From positions 320,001-384,000 of the forward strand of contig OZ242376.1 in NCBI GenBank assembly GCA_965209085.1: a stretch of DNA of 64,000 bases, written 5' to 3'. The notes below the pieces were generated by a model. It did not search any database. It saw nothing but the letters and a program-made list of their open reading frames with translations, and was not told where the DNA came from. The translations under genes and the position numbers were made by a program. The first letter of the stretch is position 1, and each line of letters starts with the position of its first letter. Below, in pieces: positions 44,192 to 55,487 of the stretch. The DNA comes from Nitrosopumilaceae archaeon. Its GTDB lineage: Archaea; Thermoproteota; Nitrososphaeria; Nitrososphaerales; Nitrosopumilaceae.

Positions 44192-47100
44192 TTATTCGTT
44201 TCTAAGATATGCGGGAAGTTTCTCAAAGGCGCGCTGATATTCCTGACGGAGTATGTCATCAAAACCGTCATTGTTGCGTCCCGGTCCGTGAAATACCCTT
44301 TCTCTGTCATCATGCGGAATCTGATATTCCTGAAAAGTAATCTGCTTTAACATGTTATCCTGCATGCTCCATTTGTATCCGTATTCATCCACCCAAAGTC
44401 CCTGCAACCGATCGGTCTGAATCAGGTATATGTTACCGGTTTTTACCGGATGGTATGTTGTATGTGATGCGCTAATTGCAATGAATGGGCGGTCGTTCTG
44501 GGATATTCCGTCCACCCGTATGCCATCATTAAAGTAAAATTGGTACGCCTGATTATCCCAGTCTACCGGTTTTACTGCCATGGTGTTGTATAGCGGCGCT
44601 TCCCTGTACGAATATTGCAGATTGACAAAGAGACATTCTGGTCCGCCGTTGGAGCATGAAACCTGTGATATTTCTGCTGAAATATGCGAATTTTCCAGCA
44701 GATTCAACTCATCATTAATGATGAGATCTTTTACAACCAATACGTCTTTTTCCATCCACACCTCTATGATTACCTCTGCATCATGATACAGACCTATGTC
44801 CGGTACGCCTAGTGCAAACTCGACGCGTTTTACACCCTGTGGACCTGCACCATCGTAGATCTTTATTTTTATCGAATTAATGTCTCCTACATTTGTACTG
44901 ATTAGCGGAAATTCCGTGTGGTATCTGCCTACATTTACGCCAAGTCCGTTGTAATCAAAACCGTTTGTTACAATCTGTTCTCCGGCGCCGGTTTTGCCCA
45001 GTGTCGGTGCGCCTGAACTGCTGGTTTGTTTGGACGATGAGCTTGCCCTGTCTAGTATTGCTTGAGATAAATGTGCAAACCACAGCGTATATGTTGATTC
45101 TGTTGGATTCCATACGTACATTGAATTATTGTAGTTTTTGTTTGCGGTTAGTATGGAAAATGCGTGGGATGCATTATCAACGATTCCATTGTATTGTAAT
45201 ATTTTTGATATCTCACCCTCGGAATTATTCCTAAACAAAGGCGTGTCTCTGATGGATGCATTGTAAAAAACAATTTTTATGGCGTGATCGCCCACCTCAT
45301 ATCTTACGTGTTCATTGCCAATTTCAATTACCAGGTAGTATTTTGGATCTTCTATTTCACGTACGACAAAACTGACATGGTCGGCATGTGATGCATTTGA
45401 TCTTACAATGGTGTCTTTTTTAATTTCTACAAACGCTCTGGAGTTTGGAATAAATCCCAAATCTGATGGATATTTTGACGTATGTATGCCTGCATTTTCA
45501 TCTGTAATATCAGAATTATTCAATATGGTATGCGATGACATTAACGTAAGCACGTTGTCGTTAGTGATGTTTGAAACTCTTACTCTGATATTTTTTTCAT
45601 GCTGTAAAGTAAATGATTTGTTATGATTAGACGTGGTTAATGCCGCAGAACCGTCGGATTCTGTGACCGTGACGATCCTCTCTGCACTGCTACCCCTGTT
45701 TCCGGCATCATCATCATCTGCAACATATGTGACAAAGTAAACGCCCGGAGCACTGGTGTTGACGTTGTTTTTTGTTGTAATTGTGCCATTATATCTTGGA
45801 TCGTTGTCTGTAACTTTAGCTCCACTGTCTGTATAATTTTCACCATTGGAAATGATGTGGGGGTTTTTACCAAGTATGAGCAGCTTTGGATGCAAAGTGT
45901 CCACGAATATGTTTGATGAATTTAGATCGTTTTGTGTAACGGCAAGAATGCCTCTCCCAAATTCAGTTTCGTTTGAAACCGACATTGAAAATATTGCATA
46001 ACCGTGATCATTGGCAGTTACATTTGTTTCAAACGTGGCAGTATTATTGTATATGAGAACCGGAACAACTCTGCCAAAGATCTGTGCTTTAGCTTCGGTC
46101 AACGGGCGATCCGTGACCAACGTTACATTCAGAACATCGTTACGTTTTGCATATTCTGTATTGCCGTTGTCGCTTGATATGGTCATTTCTAACATAACAG
46201 GACCTGGAATGTTTGTTGTGCTTATCGTGGTAACTGCCAAAATATCTAACACACTATTATTATTGTACGATAATGGTAGTGAATGATCATAATATCTTAC
46301 CGTTATCGTATCCTCAAATGATACAAGTAACATATGTCCGTTTGATCTGCCATTTATTGTAAAGTCTACCGTTCCTTCGAATACACCGGTATCATTTCTA
46401 GTTTCAATTAGGTTTAATGTTATTCCTCCAGGATCGGAATCTGACCAGACATCCACACTGACGTTTTCTACAATGCTGTTGTTTGTATTTAGATCCGGAT
46501 CGATTATTCGTACTAGGCCATTTTCAATTGCGGTATAACCTGACGATCCCCACGTGGCGATTCCGATTGTTTTTGTTGGGTTATCTAAATTGTTGTTTGA
46601 AAAGTTTGCAGGTTTTACAATCACGGTACCAGATTGCCACGGATGAACTATACAAAAATAGTCAAAAGTTTTGATTTCCGTAAATGTATGACTGAATTTT
46701 ACACCGGGGGATATTATTGAAGAGTCAAATTCGCCACCAGGACCGTTAAATGCAGATCCACTTGTCACAGTATGTACGGCAGTATCGTCATTTGTCCATG
46801 TTACGGTTCCGCCTGTTGAGATATTGACATGTGCGGGTATGAAACACGTATCATTTGTTTCACAACCTTGAATACTAGATCCTGAGGGTATGCTGACATT
46901 TACAAATCTTGGATAAGATACGTGTATACTTGCATTAAATACGTGTATACTCGCATTAAATATTATTGATGCGGATTTATTCATACCGTTATAATACGCA
47001 TCAATGGTATACGTGCCAGATTCTGCCCATAAATAATCTACACTAGGTTTGATGTTTATGACATTTTGCATATCTGATATGGGAATAAATTGTCCAACAT

Positions 47101-48067
47101 GTATTAATTGATTAGTAGGATTTGTAATTTTATACGTTACGGCAACATCATATAATGTGGGAAAATGATTGGATGACGAATTTATAGAAATTATTGTGGT
47201 TACTGATTCTCCTAATATGTAATAGTTTTTTATCGTACGCATGGTGATTAATTCATCAACTGTTGGCCGTACAAACATACTAGCATTATATGTGATGAGT
47301 GCTGAGATATGATTTCCTCCATGAGTAACAGTGATGGTATATGTGCCTGATTTATCCCACTTGCTGCTGTCTGTATTAATTACTTCAATTTTTGTAGTAT
47401 TTGTTACATAACCTAAATATTTAAAATAAGTAACATTGTGATAGGGATCTGTGATTGTATATACCAAGGCGGCACTAGTAGAAGAACTTGTAGTAATCGT
47501 CACAATTATTTTTTCACCTGACGTGTAATTATTTTTTAATGTGGACACAGTTACTGTTGGTTTGAATGCCTGATAACTTGAATTAAACATAATTGACGTT
47601 GAGGTTTGACTGCCGTTATAATCAATAATAATGCCATACGTGCCTGATTGTTTCCATAGATAAGCATCATCAGTATTGATTGATAGATTGGTTGAAACAT
47701 TCGACATGTGATTGATTTGTCCAACATCAATAAAATTGCCATCGGGATTTGTAATTCTGTATATCATATCAGTATCGGAAGATGAAGAATTTACAGTAAC
47801 TAGAGCAATTATGGTCTCACCAGATGTGTAATTATTTTTCAAAGGTTTGATATCTATGGTAGTTATTTGTGTAAAATTTGCAGTCTGTGCATACGCGTTT
47901 ATCATTGAATTTCCTATCCTGTGATTAAATTCTCTTTGAAAATCTATTGGACCGTATTTGACATCTGCCGTATCATTGTTTACTGCAAAATCATAACCGA
48001 ACGGAGCTACAAACGGCAGCGGAGACAATAATCCTAAAACCATGAAAAGTATTACATACATATTCAT
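44192..48067 (-). CDS. Large multidomain surface protein: three Ig-like repeats, cupredoxin domain, Ig/DUF5011-like domains, C-terminal domain
   Basis: Signal peptide; KNNYxSGE repeats; GCETNDTCFIP..HTVTSG..YFCIVHPWQ; YTDSGAKVTD..PGVYFVTY; many N-x-S/T sequons. Confidence 0.88.
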   Translation of the reverse strand: MNMYVILFMVLGLLSPLPFVAPFGYDFAVNNDTADVKYGPIDFQREFNHRIGNSMINAYAQTANFTQITTIDIKPLKNNYTSGETIIALVTVNSSSSDTDMIYRITNPDGNFIDVGQINHMSNVSTNLSINTDDAYLWKQSGTYGIIIDYNGSQTSTSIMFNSSYQAFKPTVTVSTLKNNYTSGEKIIVTITTSSSTSAALVYTITDPYHNVTYFKYLGYVTNTTKIEVINTDSSKWDKSGTYTITVTHGGNHISALITYNASMFVRPTVDELITMRTIKNYYILGESVTTIISINSSSNHFPTLYDVAVTYKITNPTNQLIHVGQFIPISDMQNVINIKPSVDYLWAESGTYTIDAYYNGMNKSASIIFNASIHVFNASIHVSYPRFVNVSIPSGSSIQGCETNDTCFIPAHVNISTGGTVTWTNDDTAVHTVTSGSAFNGPGGEFDSSIISPGVKFSHTFTEIKTFDYFCIVHPWQSGTVIVKPANFSNNNLDNPTKTIGIATWGSSGYTAIENGLVRIIDPDLNTNNSIVENVSVDVWSDSDPGGITLNLIETRNDTGVFEGTVDFTINGRSNGHMLLVSFEDTITVRYYDHSLPLSYNNNSVLDILAVTTISTTNIPGPVMLEMTISSDNGNTEYAKRNDVLNVTLVTDRPLTEAKAQIFGRVVPVLIYNNTATFETNVTANDHGYAIFSMSVSNETEFGRGILAVTQNDLNSSNIFVDTLHPKLLILGKNPHIISNGENYTDSGAKVTDNDPRYNGTITTKNNVNTSAPGVYFVTYVADDDDAGNRGSSAERIVTVTESDGSAALTTSNHNKSFTLQHEKNIRVRVSNITNDNVLTLMSSHTILNNSDITDENAGIHTSKYPSDLGFIPNSRAFVEIKKDTIVRSNASHADHVSFVVREIEDPKYYLVIEIGNEHVRYEVGDHAIKIVFYNASIRDTPLFRNNSEGEISKILQYNGIVDNASHAFSILTANKNYNNSMYVWNPTESTYTLWFAHLSQAILDRASSSSKQTSSSGAPTLGKTGAGEQIVTNGFDYNGLGVNVGRYHTEFPLISTNVGDINSIKIKIYDGAGPQGVKRVEFALGVPDIGLYHDAEVIIEVWMEKDVLVVKDLIINDELNLLENSHISAEISQVSCSNGGPECLFVNLQYSYREAPLYNTMAVKPVDWDNQAYQFYFNDGIRVDGISQNDRPFIAISASHTTYHPVKTGNIYLIQTDRLQGLWVDEYGYKWSMQDNMLKQITFQEYQIPHDDRERVFHGPGRNNDGFDDILRQEYQRAFEKLPAYLRNE

Positions 48068-51620: not shown

Positions 51621-51872
51621 ATGAGTGGGAAACCCCGTATGCCAGAATGGACGGGAAGACCGGTAGTAATGAACATCAAAGCGGGGGATAGTATAGCGTA
51701 CTGTATGTGCGGACTCTCAAAGAACGGTCCAGTATGTGACGGCACCCACAAGGGTACTTCAATAAAGCCCCAGGTGGAAAAATATGACGCTGATGCGCGC
51801 ATATCCTCATGCGGATGCAAACGATCCAAAGCAGTACCGATGTGCGATGGCACGCACAAAGAACCCGAATAA
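51621..51872 (+). CDS. Double CDGSH iron-sulfur domain protein
   Basis: CMCGLSKNGPVCDGTH and CGCKRSKAVPMCDGTH. Confidence 0.92.
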   Translation: MSGKPRMPEWTGRPVVMNIKAGDSIAYCMCGLSKNGPVCDGTHKGTSIKPQVEKYDADARISSCGCKRSKAVPMCDGTHKEPE

Positions 51873-51933
51873 GTCTGCGTACGGTTTGTTAAATTATGCA
51901 GGTTTAAGAAATGCCACAGATACTGTGGATGTG

Positions 51934-52812
51934 ATGGATTTTCAAAAGATACTAAACGAATACACTTTGGAGGATTTTCCTGCAGGCCTGACCGGATGCA
52001 GAAGTGACGGCACATCGCACGAATGCTGCGAATATGATCTTACTGTATTTGATGAACGCAATGAGCTTGATACTGTGGCAGAATACGGGGATTCACTAGT
52101 ATGCATAAGACACCGTTCACTTTCATCGCCGCGTTCTCCGGACATGGTAAGATATGATGATATGAAAATAATTTCCGATGCATCGTGGGATCTGCACATG
52201 TTACTTGCGCGCATACGTGAAAAACGAACCGAACTGTATGCCGATTACATGAGGGATTCACTTATCGATTCGATGTTTTGCACCACAAAATTTCGAGAAG
52301 GGTTGAAAATGTCGGATCCATTTGCAATCTGCTGGATAAAATGTGCCGCGTTGTACCTGGCTGATGCCGCACTTTTATCATGCATGGAAAGACCGTCTCC
52401 AACACACGCACTGCATAAACTTCGCATGGTGCAAAAAAAGATCTCCGGTAACGCGTTTTCACTGGTAAACGAATGCATGGGAGCTGAACGCGCCACACCT
52501 TCGCTGCTTGAACGCATGGCAAAATCCACCGCGGGATTTTCCGATACGGTGGAAGGAAACGATCATTCAAAAATAATACTGCACAAAACCAAATATCTTT
52601 TGTCCGAATCGCTTTTGGCAGACTGTTATTTCTATCTCCAGTATGAAAACAGGAACATGCTGATAAAAATAAAAAACCAACTCCGAAAGAAACCCGATCT
52701 GATTTACATATTAAAAGTGTCAATGGATGTGGGGGTGGATACGGGCATGCTGGAAAATTACGCCCACAGGCTGTACGGGGAGGCAAGCCGTATACTTGCT
52801 GAACGTACGTAA
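51934..52812 (+). CDS. Hypothetical protein, possible Pol-beta nucleotidyltransferase-like fold
   Basis: GLTGCRSDG..CCEYDLTVF followed by a helical domain. Confidence 0.7.
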   Translation: MDFQKILNEYTLEDFPAGLTGCRSDGTSHECCEYDLTVFDERNELDTVAEYGDSLVCIRHRSLSSPRSPDMVRYDDMKIISDASWDLHMLLARIREKRTELYADYMRDSLIDSMFCTTKFREGLKMSDPFAICWIKCAALYLADAALLSCMERPSPTHALHKLRMVQKKISGNAFSLVNECMGAERATPSLLERMAKSTAGFSDTVEGNDHSKIILHKTKYLLSESLLADCYFYLQYENRNMLIKIKNQLRKKPDLIYILKVSMDVGVDTGMLENYAHRLYGEASRILAERT

Positions 52813-52885
52813 AATGATACGAATATGTGAAAACACCTGTGTGGTTTTTCTAAACCTTTAAACTAAACTCTTTGAAAATGTCACC

Positions 52886-53026
52886 ATGTCAGATGCATCA
52901 TGCGGTTGCGACGCCTCCAACGAGACCGGTAACATATGTGATTGCGACATACAGGGGCAATGTTTTTGCGATGCAACATGCGAGTGCAGATCCAACCTTT
53001 GTAAAGACGCAACAAAAGACATGTAA
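52886..53026 (+). CDS. Metallothionein-like Cys-rich micro-protein (not in ORF track)
   Basis: MSDASCGCDASNETGNICDCDIQGQCFCDATCECRSNLCKDATKDM; TTTAAA at 52857-52862. Confidence 0.85.
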   Translation: MSDASCGCDASNETGNICDCDIQGQCFCDATCECRSNLCKDATKDM

Positions 53027-53130
53027 AATGTCCATTATGCACTATTTTTTAGATACTTTTACTATGCGTGATCATTTTTTTGATAAATATACCGTAATGT
53101 ATTAAAGCAAATTTGGCATGTGGTAATTAT

Positions 53131-53919
53131 ATGAAGTACGTTTTACTTGCATTTACAATTCTAACCGTTTTTGGAGCCATACAACATGTTGCTGCACTGG
53201 ATACAGGCACTGCGGCCGAAAACGATTGTCCAAGAGACTATGATTATGTGCAAATCCAAAAAAATTCTTCGCTCTCATCATACCTAATCGATGTGACATA
53301 CGGTCCGCCTGAGATTAAACTTGGATGTGACATTGAATGGATCATAAATTTTTTAAACCCGCGCAACCAATCTGAATTTTTAGAAAACGTCCAGTATGAC
53401 ATTATTTTGGATGCATCCGTGAATAATAACGATCCGCACATTATCCAATCACTTGCATCAGACGAAGGAGGTCGGTTCCTATATTCGTCATCAGGACAGG
53501 CTGAAAAATTTATGACGGTAAACCATTCCATCAATCCGACAAAATATGTGATTCTAGTGTACGGTCTCTCACCTTTGGATGTAAAACCGTCTGGATTCTT
53601 TGAAACTTTGGAGATAAACGTACCATTTAACGAACCTACCGTACCGGTAAAGTTCGTACCGGAATGGATAAAAAAATCCGCCTCGTTTTGGATTCAGGGT
53701 CATACCGGCGACATTGAATTTGTCTCCGCAATGCAGTATCTGGTAAACGAGGGCATCATAGTACTGCCTCCTACAGAAAGCGGCTCTGACACGGACGGAG
53801 GTATCCCAGGCTGGATCAAAAATACGGTGGGATTTTGGGTGGACGGACATACAACTGATGCAAAATTCACAAGTGCCATACAATACCTTGTAAAACAGGG
53901 CATCATTGTTCTCTCATAG
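53131..53919 (+). CDS. Secreted protein with thaumarchaeal tandem C-terminal IPxWIK modules; short paralogue of next gene
   Basis: Signal peptide; VPEWIKKSASFW and IPGWIKNTVGFW..AIQYLVKQGII. Confidence 0.85.
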   Translation: MKYVLLAFTILTVFGAIQHVAALDTGTAAENDCPRDYDYVQIQKNSSLSSYLIDVTYGPPEIKLGCDIEWIINFLNPRNQSEFLENVQYDIILDASVNNNDPHIIQSLASDEGGRFLYSSSGQAEKFMTVNHSINPTKYVILVYGLSPLDVKPSGFFETLEINVPFNEPTVPVKFVPEWIKKSASFWIQGHTGDIEFVSAMQYLVNEGIIVLPPTESGSDTDGGIPGWIKNTVGFWVDGHTTDAKFTSAIQYLVKQGIIVLS

Positions 53920-54053: not shown

Positions 54054-55487
54054 ATGAAATACATATCTGCTGCATTTGTAATTTTATTTGTAATCGGTGC
54101 AGCACAGCATGCTGCAGCGCAGGATATCGGAGGCGGCGTGGACAAGAAAGGAACCTGGTACGTGGGCGAAGGTCTCAAAATAGGAGAAAGATTTGAATAT
54201 TCTGTGTGCCATGTGGCGTATAAAGAGTGCACGCCTTTGGTAATGGATTTTTGGATCAAAGGTAATATTGTAGAAGGCACTGAAACCAAATGGCTGGTCG
54301 AGACTGTCGTATATGATGGAAAAAAAATAATCAAAGGCCAGATGCATCTTGGCAAAGTGGCTCCGGAACCTACGGGAGGCTCACTTGAATTGCGTTCGTA
54401 CGCAAGCGTATTCAAATCTTCGATTGTATGGCTTTCTGCATTTGCAACCTCTTATGGCGGCGAAGGAGGGGAAGGTCCAAAAGAATTCAAGGCCGTCTCG
54501 TGGGGCAAAATAGGCAACATTGGAGGTCAGCAGGTAAAACCAACCCAGATAGAAACTGTAAGCACAAGAGAGGGCATAATATATGATGCGGTGCAGGTAT
54601 CGTGGCGTACCGGAGGCTCGACTAGCAAGATTTGGATTGTAGATGAATTCCCGTTCCCGGTTAAAGCTAGTACGTGGGTACACGTAGCGGAAGGCATTCC
54701 GCCGCAAGAATACAAATTTGAACTGTTAAATTATGAAGATGGAGTAACGGAGGATCCGTATGCTGACATAGTACCGACCGCTCTAAAAATCAAGCCAATA
54801 AACTGCCCAACAGATTATGATTATGTCAAAGTCAAAAAAACATCATCTGGGAATTCTTATCTGATAGATCTCAAATACGGTCCGCCGGAGATTAAATTTG
54901 GATGCGACATTGAATGGATTATAAACTTCCGCAGTCCGTACGATGAATCTGACTTTGTGTATCAGGTTCAATACGATATTTTTGTGGAAGATCCAAACAA
55001 TGCAGAGATTGTCCAATCGCTTGCAAAAGATGAAGGTAGCCAGTTCCTGTATTCGGCGTCGGGGCAGATTAGAAGACACATGGAAACTGACACTTTTTTT
55101 AATCCTACAAAATACATCGTCATAGTGTACGGGCTGGCGGCAAAGGATGAGGTACCAAAAGAATTACCTGAAACTCTGGAGATAAACGTACCATTTAACG
55201 AACCTACCGTGCCAGTAAAATTCGTACCGAAATGGATAAAAAAATCCGCCTCGTTTTGGATTCAGGGTAATACTAGCGACATTGAATTTGTCTCCGCAAT
55301 GCAGTATCTGGTAAACGAGGGCATCATAGTTTTGCCACAGACTGAAAAAACCCAGGATTCTGGAGGAAATATTCTAAATTGGATAAAACAGACAGTGAGA
55401 TTCTGGGTGGATGGCCATACAACTGATGCAGAATTCACAAATGCCATACAATACCTTGTAAAACAGGGCATAATCGTCCTCTCCTAG
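54054..55487 (+). CDS. Secreted protein with thaumarchaeal tandem C-terminal IPxWIK modules
   Basis: Signal peptide; WYVGEGLK, WGKIGNIGG, IWIVDEFPFP; same C-terminal modules as previous gene. Confidence 0.88.
   Translation: MKYISAAFVILFVIGAAQHAAAQDIGGGVDKKGTWYVGEGLKIGERFEYSVCHVAYKECTPLVMDFWIKGNIVEGTETKWLVETVVYDGKKIIKGQMHLGKVAPEPTGGSLELRSYASVFKSSIVWLSAFATSYGGEGGEGPKEFKAVSWGKIGNIGGQQVKPTQIETVSTREGIIYDAVQVSWRTGGSTSKIWIVDEFPFPVKASTWVHVAEGIPPQEYKFELLNYEDGVTEDPYADIVPTALKIKPINCPTDYDYVKVKKTSSGNSYLIDLKYGPPEIKFGCDIEWIINFRSPYDESDFVYQVQYDIFVEDPNNAEIVQSLAKDEGSQFLYSASGQIRRHMETDTFFNPTKYIVIVYGLAAKDEVPKELPETLEINVPFNEPTVPVKFVPKWIKKSASFWIQGNTSDIEFVSAMQYLVNEGIIVLPQTEKTQDSGGNILNWIKQTVRFWVDGHTTDAEFTNAIQYLVKQGIIVLS

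Follow-up and report, generated by a model that had tools for sequence, protein, structure and literature searches.

Metallothioneins are small proteins (below about 10 kDa) in which about 15-30% of the residues are Cys, arranged in CxC, CxxC or CC motifs, with few aromatic residues and with metals held in metal-thiolate clusters. The vertebrate metallothioneins are rich in Lys, and the nine-Cys beta-domain carries three divalent ions (Zn/Cd) as an M3S9 cluster or about four to six Cu(I) ions. The fungal Cu(I)-thioneins and the mycobacterial MymT are cytosolic, CxC-dominated peptides of about 25-55 aa with one Cu(I)-thiolate cluster, and they are metal-induced stress proteins. The fold of SmtA is zinc-finger-like with His ligands. 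Ammonia-oxidizing archaea of the family Nitrosopumilaceae rely heavily on copper proteins. No characterized archaeal metallothionein was found in the literature covered, and neither was a paper on a metallothionein of ammonia-oxidizing archaea, most subscription journals lying outside this literature. The mentions of metallothionein in the available passages of PMC11849506, PMC8490943, PMC13003922, and bioRxiv 10.1101/175141 are generic or unrelated, while in PMC10694973 and PMC9781358 the relevant terms occur in the reference lists only. As far as its available passages go, PMC13003922, a 2026 paper on the copper requirements of ammonia-oxidizing archaea, only presumes homeostasis mechanisms. 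The word ‘metallothionein’ is absent from the supplements of PMC6593220 (five files) and PMC9723733 (two files), where a listing by locus tag is possible.

The window (the whole stretch of DNA analyzed here, i.e., 64,000 nt of contig OZ242376.1, positions 320,001 to 384,000, from a Nitrosopumilaceae archaeon) contains on its forward strand a CDS at 52886..53026 (ATG to TAA, stop codon included) that encodes a mini-protein of 46 aa, referred to here as Cys9, with the translation MSDASCGCDASNETGNICDCDIQGQCFCDATCECRSNLCKDATKDM. The nine Cys residues (9/46, 19.6%) are found at positions 6, 8, 18, 20, 26, 28, 32, 34, and 39, forming four CxC pairs and leaving one Cys on its own. The charged residues are seven Asp, two Glu, two Lys, and one Arg, giving a net charge of about -6, and the only aromatic residue is a single Phe (F27), with no Tyr, Trp, or His. 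By its length, Cys share, four CxC motifs, and one aromatic residue, the protein falls within the operational sequence definition of a metallothionein. An earlier note on this DNA had described exactly such an acidic 46-aa ORF with four CxC pairs, a lone Cys, and few aromatics, and re-translation returned the same protein. The note had also called the gene hidden. This holds as well, since the exact product is absent from the public protein collection in which a 452-aa paralogue of the same genome (P0209) is present, indicating that the gene has remained uncalled in its own genome. The source organism is an ammonia oxidizer, given the archaeal amoA gene in its genome.

The composition by itself is weak evidence for a gene. 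Short Cys-rich ORFs arise by chance: with all six frames of this genome taken together, there are 5,484 ORFs of 35-70 aa that start with ATG, and 14 of these contain at least nine Cys, the Cys9 ORF being the only one among them all with at least four CxC motifs. Moreover, a 77-aa frame (52872-53105) and two antisense frames are open in the window. The ORF could thus be no gene at all but a chance ORF, with the overlapping 77-aa frame, an antisense frame, or a non-coding RNA in its place. Comparison with 38 orthologues speaks against each of these options. The frame of the 77-aa ORF, whose conservation in place of the Cys frame the earlier note had named as a reason to give up the gene, is stop-free in only eight of the 38 orthologues, the third forward frame in none, and the reverse frames in 6, 8, and 16 (the Cys frame is open in all 38 as a consequence of how the loci were found). 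Nonsynonymous differences are the rarer ones throughout, with pN below pS in 703 out of 703 orthologue pairs and a median dN/dS (Nei-Gojobori) of 0.25 over the 384 usable pairs; against the nearest relative, dN is 0.106 and dS 0.61. Two or three synonymous codons are mixed in every invariant Cys, Asp, and Gly column. Rfam gave no match at E up to 1 in the region 52600-53300. As far as comparative data go, the reading as a non-gene is refuted, leaving it a negligible probability, and the Cys9 ORF is almost certainly a real gene.

Cys9 orthologues are encoded in 36 out of 36 genomes of the same family (tblastn with the protein, E-values between 9e-20 and 1e-5). A profile built from 38 orthologues matches all 73 genomes of a wider sample of the family (72 out of 72 without genome G291, which is unpublished), and the profile search places the match in a short open frame in 74 out of 74 family genomes, including the genome of the window (G000). 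The same profile matches none of the 227 genomes from 19 sister families of the same order. Among the 38 sequences (37 genomes), residues M1, D3, C6, G7, C8, C18, D19, C20, C26, C28, C32, C34, and C39 are invariant and Q23 is kept in at least 90% of the sequences; when extended to 111 sequences, the nine Cys, M1, G7, and D19 are all still invariant. The orthologues are 44-49 aa long and have one or two Phe/Tyr each, some with one His (38 sequences). The window protein fits the family pattern M-x-D-x-x-C-G-C ... C-D-C-x5-C-x-C-x3-C-x-C-x4-C with all nine Cys. Both the conserved Cys spacing and the dN/dS below one, which the earlier note had proposed as checks, were thus found. Purifying selection acts on the gene, which is a universal and exclusive feature of the family. 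Three tblastn matches outside the family (E-values of 0.037-0.54; genomes G056, G053, and G050) were rejected as orthologues on inspection: one is a start-less 60-aa frame with a partial CxC resemblance, and the others contain stops or nothing comparable. No relative of the protein was found in viral contigs.

The family is already present in databases, where orthologues have been deposited and some have been automatically named metallothionein. We found 139 Cys9-family proteins in public databases at E-values up to 0.01. The deposited orthologues are 44-49 aa long, originate by source name from Nitrosopumilus, Nitrosopelagicus, Nitrosotenuis, Nitrosotalea, and Nitrosarchaeum, and bear the automatic labels ‘hypothetical protein,’ ‘Metallothionein’ (UniRef), or ‘metallothionein 4’ (JGI). 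The full Cys pattern is present in 150 of 159 public proteins of at most 50 aa, the remaining nine being truncated, frameshifted, or single-Cys variants. An exhaustive profile search of 1.84 billion representatives yielded 31 matches at E-values up to 0.001, which all correspond to the free form, a fused form (see below), or fragments, except for one unrelated repeat protein. Cys9 thus appears as a closed, lineage-specific family.

The gene is preceded by a TATA box (TTTAAACT, 52857..52864, forward strand) that starts at -29 from the ATG and is conserved in the orthologues. Its core TTTAAA (52857-52862) spans positions -29 to -24 relative to the A of the ATG, and either TTTAAA or TTTATA starts between -28 and -31 in all 38 orthologues and precisely at -29 in 30 of them, with T at -29 and A at -25 each in 38 out of 38. 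Directly 5′ of the TATA box lies a BRE-like element, CTAAACC (52850..52856, forward strand), with conserved columns as well (A at -33 in 36, A at -32 in 29, and C at -31 in 26 of the 38 orthologues), which may serve as the TFB-recognition element. The 38 upstream regions show no conservation in the columns further upstream. In the genome of the window, a TTTAWA start between -31 and -28 precedes 403 of 79,289 ATG triplets (0.5%) and 58 of the 1,326 first ATGs of ORFs of at least 150 aa (4.4%), with a sharp peak at -29. Given this background peak, Cys9 follows the geometry of the leaderless genes of the organism. From the spacing between TATA box and ATG we infer a transcript start at or beside the ATG, and the transcript is probably leaderless, in agreement with the earlier note, which had assigned the gene its own promoter with leaderless geometry. 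The promoter looks constitutive. On the other side, a first oligo-T tract (T6, 53045..53050, forward strand) lies 19 nt after the stop codon and likely acts as an archaeal terminator; a second tract (T7, 53075..53081, forward strand) could, judged by its sequence alone, be a back-up terminator. A run of at least five T begins at most 30 nt after the stop in 36 out of 38 orthologues, compared to 11% of random 35-nt stretches of the same genome.

The surroundings of the gene are conserved without being informative about its role. A homologue of a 342-aa ORF is located upstream on the same strand in 32 of the 38 loci and a homologue of an exported protein of about 480 aa downstream in 33, both neighbors being present in 31, and the window has one of each. 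We draw no function from this synteny, as stable genomes alone could explain its occurrence across the family. Housekeeping genes make up the remainder of the window, and no metal-resistance genes were found in the neighborhood. The earlier note had pointed to a CDGSH protein two genes upstream. This gene is indeed there (51621-51869, PF09360, E-value of 2.4e-17), but a CDGSH gene lies within the retrieved flanks of only two of the 38 Cys9 loci, which makes the link a local accident. The 342-aa ORF itself (51784-52812, forward strand) has no match in Pfam or NCBIfam and no significant PDB sequence match. In its listed form, it shares about 90 nt with the CDGSH gene, but its relatives align only from about residue 45 on, so that its true start is probably a later Met. 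Downstream, two adjacent genes on the forward strand (53131-53919 and 54054-55487) encode exported proteins of 268 and 483 aa that belong to no Pfam family. The 268-aa protein matches the C-terminal half of the 483-aa protein, including two copies of a motif of about 35 aa (...W-I-K-x-x-x-x-F-W-[IV]-x-G-x-T-x-D-x-x-F-x-x-A-[IM]-Q-Y-L-V-x-x-G-I-I-V-L). At this place, most relatives carry just one gene (about 480-500 aa), which suggests a local duplication of part of that gene as the origin of the 268-aa one. Another protein of the window, encoded on the reverse strand (44195-48067) about 5 kb upstream of Cys9, is 1,291 aa long and combines a copper-binding domain of the plastocyanin/azurin type (PF00127, E-value of 2.5e-5) with a bacterial-surface Ig-like domain.

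A second conserved mini-gene, encoding about 50-58 aa, is oriented tail-to-tail with Cys9 in 33 of the 38 loci, 25-156 nt beyond the Cys9 stop codon (e.g., L030:3185-3355, minus strand). The encoded protein starts with M-C-[ED]-C and contains the sequence ...P-T-H-K-N-C-G..., belongs to no Pfam family, and could form a zinc site from C2, C4, H25, and C28. The mini-gene is missing at the locus (53027-53130) in the genome of the window and in a congener; the former contains only a Cys-less relative elsewhere (G000:C1:842755-842910; tblastn E-value of 1.4e-12). This CxC...H...C mini-protein may belong to the same system as Cys9.

The Cys9 domain also occurs in a fused form. Outside the window, it makes up the C-terminus of the 452-aa paralogue (G000:C1:1329028-1330362), and the profile search detected a fusion to such a membrane protein of about 450 aa in 47 out of 74 family genomes. 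These proteins begin with a signal peptide and an ectodomain of about 300 aa that is free of Cys. A single TM helix followed by basic residues comes next, then a linker that is conserved and a spacer that varies, and the Cys9 domain closes the chain. This order predicts a cytoplasmic location of the fused domain, and the cytoplasm is where thiols stay reduced. In 64 fused proteins, the nine Cys and the Asp of the CDC motif are invariant; over 51 free and fused domains taken together, invariance is confined to the nine Cys and D19. The ectodomain belongs to no Pfam family, the paralogue has no significant PDB sequence match, and the nearest language-model neighbors of the ectodomain are only unnamed clusters with scores of 0.84 or below. 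In the AlphaFold model of the paralogue, the ectodomain is confidently predicted, most of residues 30-210 and 261-270 having a pLDDT above 90; the TM helix is placed at residues 318-343, and the tail is of low confidence (pLDDT below 50). Foldseek found nothing for this model at E-values up to 0.001 (TM 0.13 or below), and the best VIA match (3eoj_A, Z 5.1, rmsd 4.8 over 125 aligned residues) is below the noise level stated for the tool.

In five fusion-less genomes, the membrane protein is still encoded but has a tail that lacks Cys9. Four of these five tail-less orthologues (G007, G013, G024, and G020; L056-L059) share an alternative end motif, ...[KR]-G-[SA]-M-P-K-[GD]-W..., while the fifth (G011, 26% identical) has no MPKGW-type motif. 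The tail of the membrane protein thus seems to be modular, with two alternative end pieces. Free and fused copies are close to each other in two genomes: in G023, the fused tail (L051) and the free gene (L040) are 90% identical in protein, 92% in DNA, and 90% at third positions, and in G014 the corresponding values (L050 and L026) are 81, 79, and 64%, compared to 59% (DNA) and 30% (third positions) in the genome of the window. The fused tails of G023 and G014 even keep the initial Met of the free gene. Such similarity is indicative of recent gene conversion or domain replacement between both copies, and the high identity suggests that the domain has recently been exchanged between the two contexts and works in both.

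This architecture bears on two other explanations of the protein. First, Cys9 could be a metal-stabilized docking or adaptor module: a fixed mini-fold, kept in shape by at least one structural ion (probably Zn), would bind either to a conserved partner in the cytoplasm or to the tail of the membrane protein itself. Following Rosetta-stone logic, the free gene would then give in trans what the fused tail gives in cis. Such a module would account for the frequent presence of the domain on the cytoplasmic tail of a membrane protein that is itself conserved, for the other conserved end motif that replaces the domain in four of the five fusion-less genomes, for the invariant or nearly invariant D3, G7, D19, and Q23, and for a universal core gene with a constitutive-looking promoter. 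However, no partner is known, nine Cys within 34 residues exceed the needs of a structural site, and the swapping between free and fused contexts fits an autonomous function equally well. We consider docking unlikely, though worth keeping in view. Second, a short Cys-rich protein might be a secreted disulfide-rich peptide or the precursor of a ribosomal natural product. The free protein has no signal peptide or leader and is conserved from residue 1 (M-x-D-x-x-C-G-C), no maturation enzyme or exporter is conserved alongside it, and the position of its fused counterpart relative to the TM helix is cytoplasmic, all of which renders secretion scarcely credible.

Comparison with described protein families returned few leads. 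The window protein matches no Pfam family at E-values up to 1 and nothing in NCBIfam. Among the 38 members of the family, weak matches to only two Pfam families were found: the metallothionein family PF00131 in five members (best E-value of 0.019, below the curated threshold) and PF22906 in eight (best E-value of 0.034), the latter taken as a chance match. The bacterial metallothionein family PF02069 (SmtA/BmtA) is matched by none of the 38 members at E-values up to 10, and the Cys9 protein has no HMM match to DUF326/Csp (PF03860). With 46 aa and three short predicted helices, it could not form the four-helix bundle of a Csp according to the model. The free protein had no match in PDB sequence searches. 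For the fused copy, there is a weak and non-significant alignment with the beta-domain of human MT-1A (E-values of 0.069 and 0.72), and in this alignment the six central Cys share the spacing CxC-x5-CxC-x3-CxC with MT-1A while the other three are spaced differently. The named language-model clusters nearest to homologue P0020 are three metallothionein families (scores of 0.84, 0.81, and 0.78), which we regard as leads only. AlphaFold models the free protein in its apo form with a pLDDT of 72.9, a pTM of 0.41, and helices at residues 8-14, 19-23, and 37-45; no Foldseek match at E-values up to 10 and no VIA match at Z of at least 2 was found for this model. The Cys pairing, the spacing, the language-model neighbors, and PF00131 all point to a domain of the beta-domain type while being individually non-significant. 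The metallothionein-like make-up claimed by the earlier note stands. No curated metallothionein model matches the protein.

The same searches bear on the option that Cys9 binds an iron-sulfur cluster or that its thiols act as an element reactive to redox state, NO, or peroxide, be it as an electron carrier, a sensor, or a sacrificial antioxidant. Ferredoxins are likewise small, acidic, and Cys-rich, as is Cys9, and the amoA gene marks the organism as an ammonia oxidizer; ammonia-oxidizing archaea produce NO and are peroxide-sensitive. The peroxide sensitivity of such organisms is the subject of PMC6593220. The CxC pairs of Cys9, however, do not follow the usual spacing of Fe-S proteins. No Fe-S family in Pfam or NCBIfam is matched, and the 38 loci contain no conserved adjoining gene for Fe-S assembly, a redox partner, a maturation enzyme, or an exporter. 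The usual Fe-S spacing is of the CxxC type. Altogether, an Fe-S or redox role is an improbable explanation.

The genome of the window encodes no HMA domain (PF00403; CopZ/CopA type) and no DUF326/Csp protein (PF03860). HMA domains occur in only 10 out of 36 family genomes, compared to 16 out of 24 genomes of sister families. Nine of these ten family matches are located in frames of 790-837 aa, the size of an ATPase, and one in a 216-aa frame (G021), whereas an HMA domain in a frame of CopZ size was found in none of the 36. DUF326 is present in one of the 36. The absence of both HMA and DUF326/Csp leaves a cytosolic Cu(I) buffer otherwise unaccounted for, which is circumstantial support for Cys9 in that role. 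The earlier note had additionally argued from the copper dependence of ammonia oxidizers. That argument is weakened, as the gene is found in none of the 227 sister-family genomes, among which we assume other ammonia oxidizers to be present.

We propose that Cys9 is a monocistronic gene, which would be transcribed from the BRE/TATA promoter 29 nt upstream and terminated at the oligo-T tract. The 46-aa chain, rich in Cys (nine) and Asp (seven) but nearly devoid of hydrophobic residues, should be unable to fold on its own, and a metal-thiolate cluster would be the simplest way to structure it. The nine invariant thiolates would enclose a small cluster of three Zn/Cd or about four to six Cu(I) ions. 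In the cytosol, the free protein would then constitutively buffer or donate thiophilic metals, namely Cu(I) and/or Zn(II), and the fused copy would be a membrane-tethered version of the same domain on the cytoplasmic side. Metal binding, stoichiometry, metal identity, and the buffering role are what we infer from the conserved thiolates and their context. We regard Cys9 as a probable metal-thiolate domain, and we see an even chance that metallothionein-like buffering or donation of metal is its function.

Several observations weigh against this proposal. Cys9 has no significant similarity to any metallothionein family. The invariance or near-invariance of D3, G7, D19, and Q23 and the negative charge point to a defined fold or a partner, strict invariance outside the Cys residues and a strong negative charge not being typical of metallothioneins. 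A universal, single-copy, and syntenic gene looks like a housekeeping component and not like an accessory of metal stress. Its lack in all 227 genomes of the 19 sister families speaks against linking the gene in general to copper-dependent ammonia oxidation, and the fusion to a membrane protein could indicate a docking or signaling role instead of bulk buffering. Since a housekeeping component fits the data at least as well as a detoxification protein, we retain docking and redox/Fe-S roles beside metal buffering. The furthest-reaching option, put forward tentatively and with more doubt than confidence, would make the Cys9 domain the first metallothionein family of the Archaea and, at the same time, a metal hub with a housekeeping role that is peculiar to these ammonia oxidizers. 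If it is true, the soluble and membrane-tethered forms would together replace the missing CopZ-type chaperones and Csp-type stores, and Cu(I) (or Zn) would be buffered and passed to or from the membrane by them in archaea that rank among the most abundant of the ocean. In genomes that are mostly devoid of HMA-type chaperones and Csp stores, Cys9 is a concrete candidate for the role of the missing buffer. Should the protein bind metal, it would offer an experimentally accessible archaeal metallothionein and possibly a marker of metal status in marine nitrifiers; if it binds none, it would still be a core mini-protein of the whole family.

Among the described systems, SmtA/BmtA share with Cys9 a prokaryotic origin, small size, a high Cys content, and a candidate role in metal buffering, but the window protein has no His and no counterpart to their fold. 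The fungal Cu(I)-thioneins and MymT are, like Cys9, small stand-alone CxC-rich peptides, although no sequence match between them and Cys9 was found in any search. In contrast to these peptides, Cys9 is encoded by a core gene of a whole family with a constitutive-looking promoter. Cys9 also resembles the beta-domain of vertebrate and crustacean metallothioneins (PF00131), which likewise has nine Cys in four CxC pairs plus one within about 30-35 residues and is cytosolic and without a hydrophobic core. Cys9 differs from it in the distance of 9-10 residues between the first and the second CxC and in the last Cys, which follows after four residues, and it is a strongly acidic, single-domain protein with invariant Asp, Gly, and Gln residues that is restricted to one archaeal family. 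The likeness to the animal metallothioneins is thus more likely to have arisen by convergence than by common descent.
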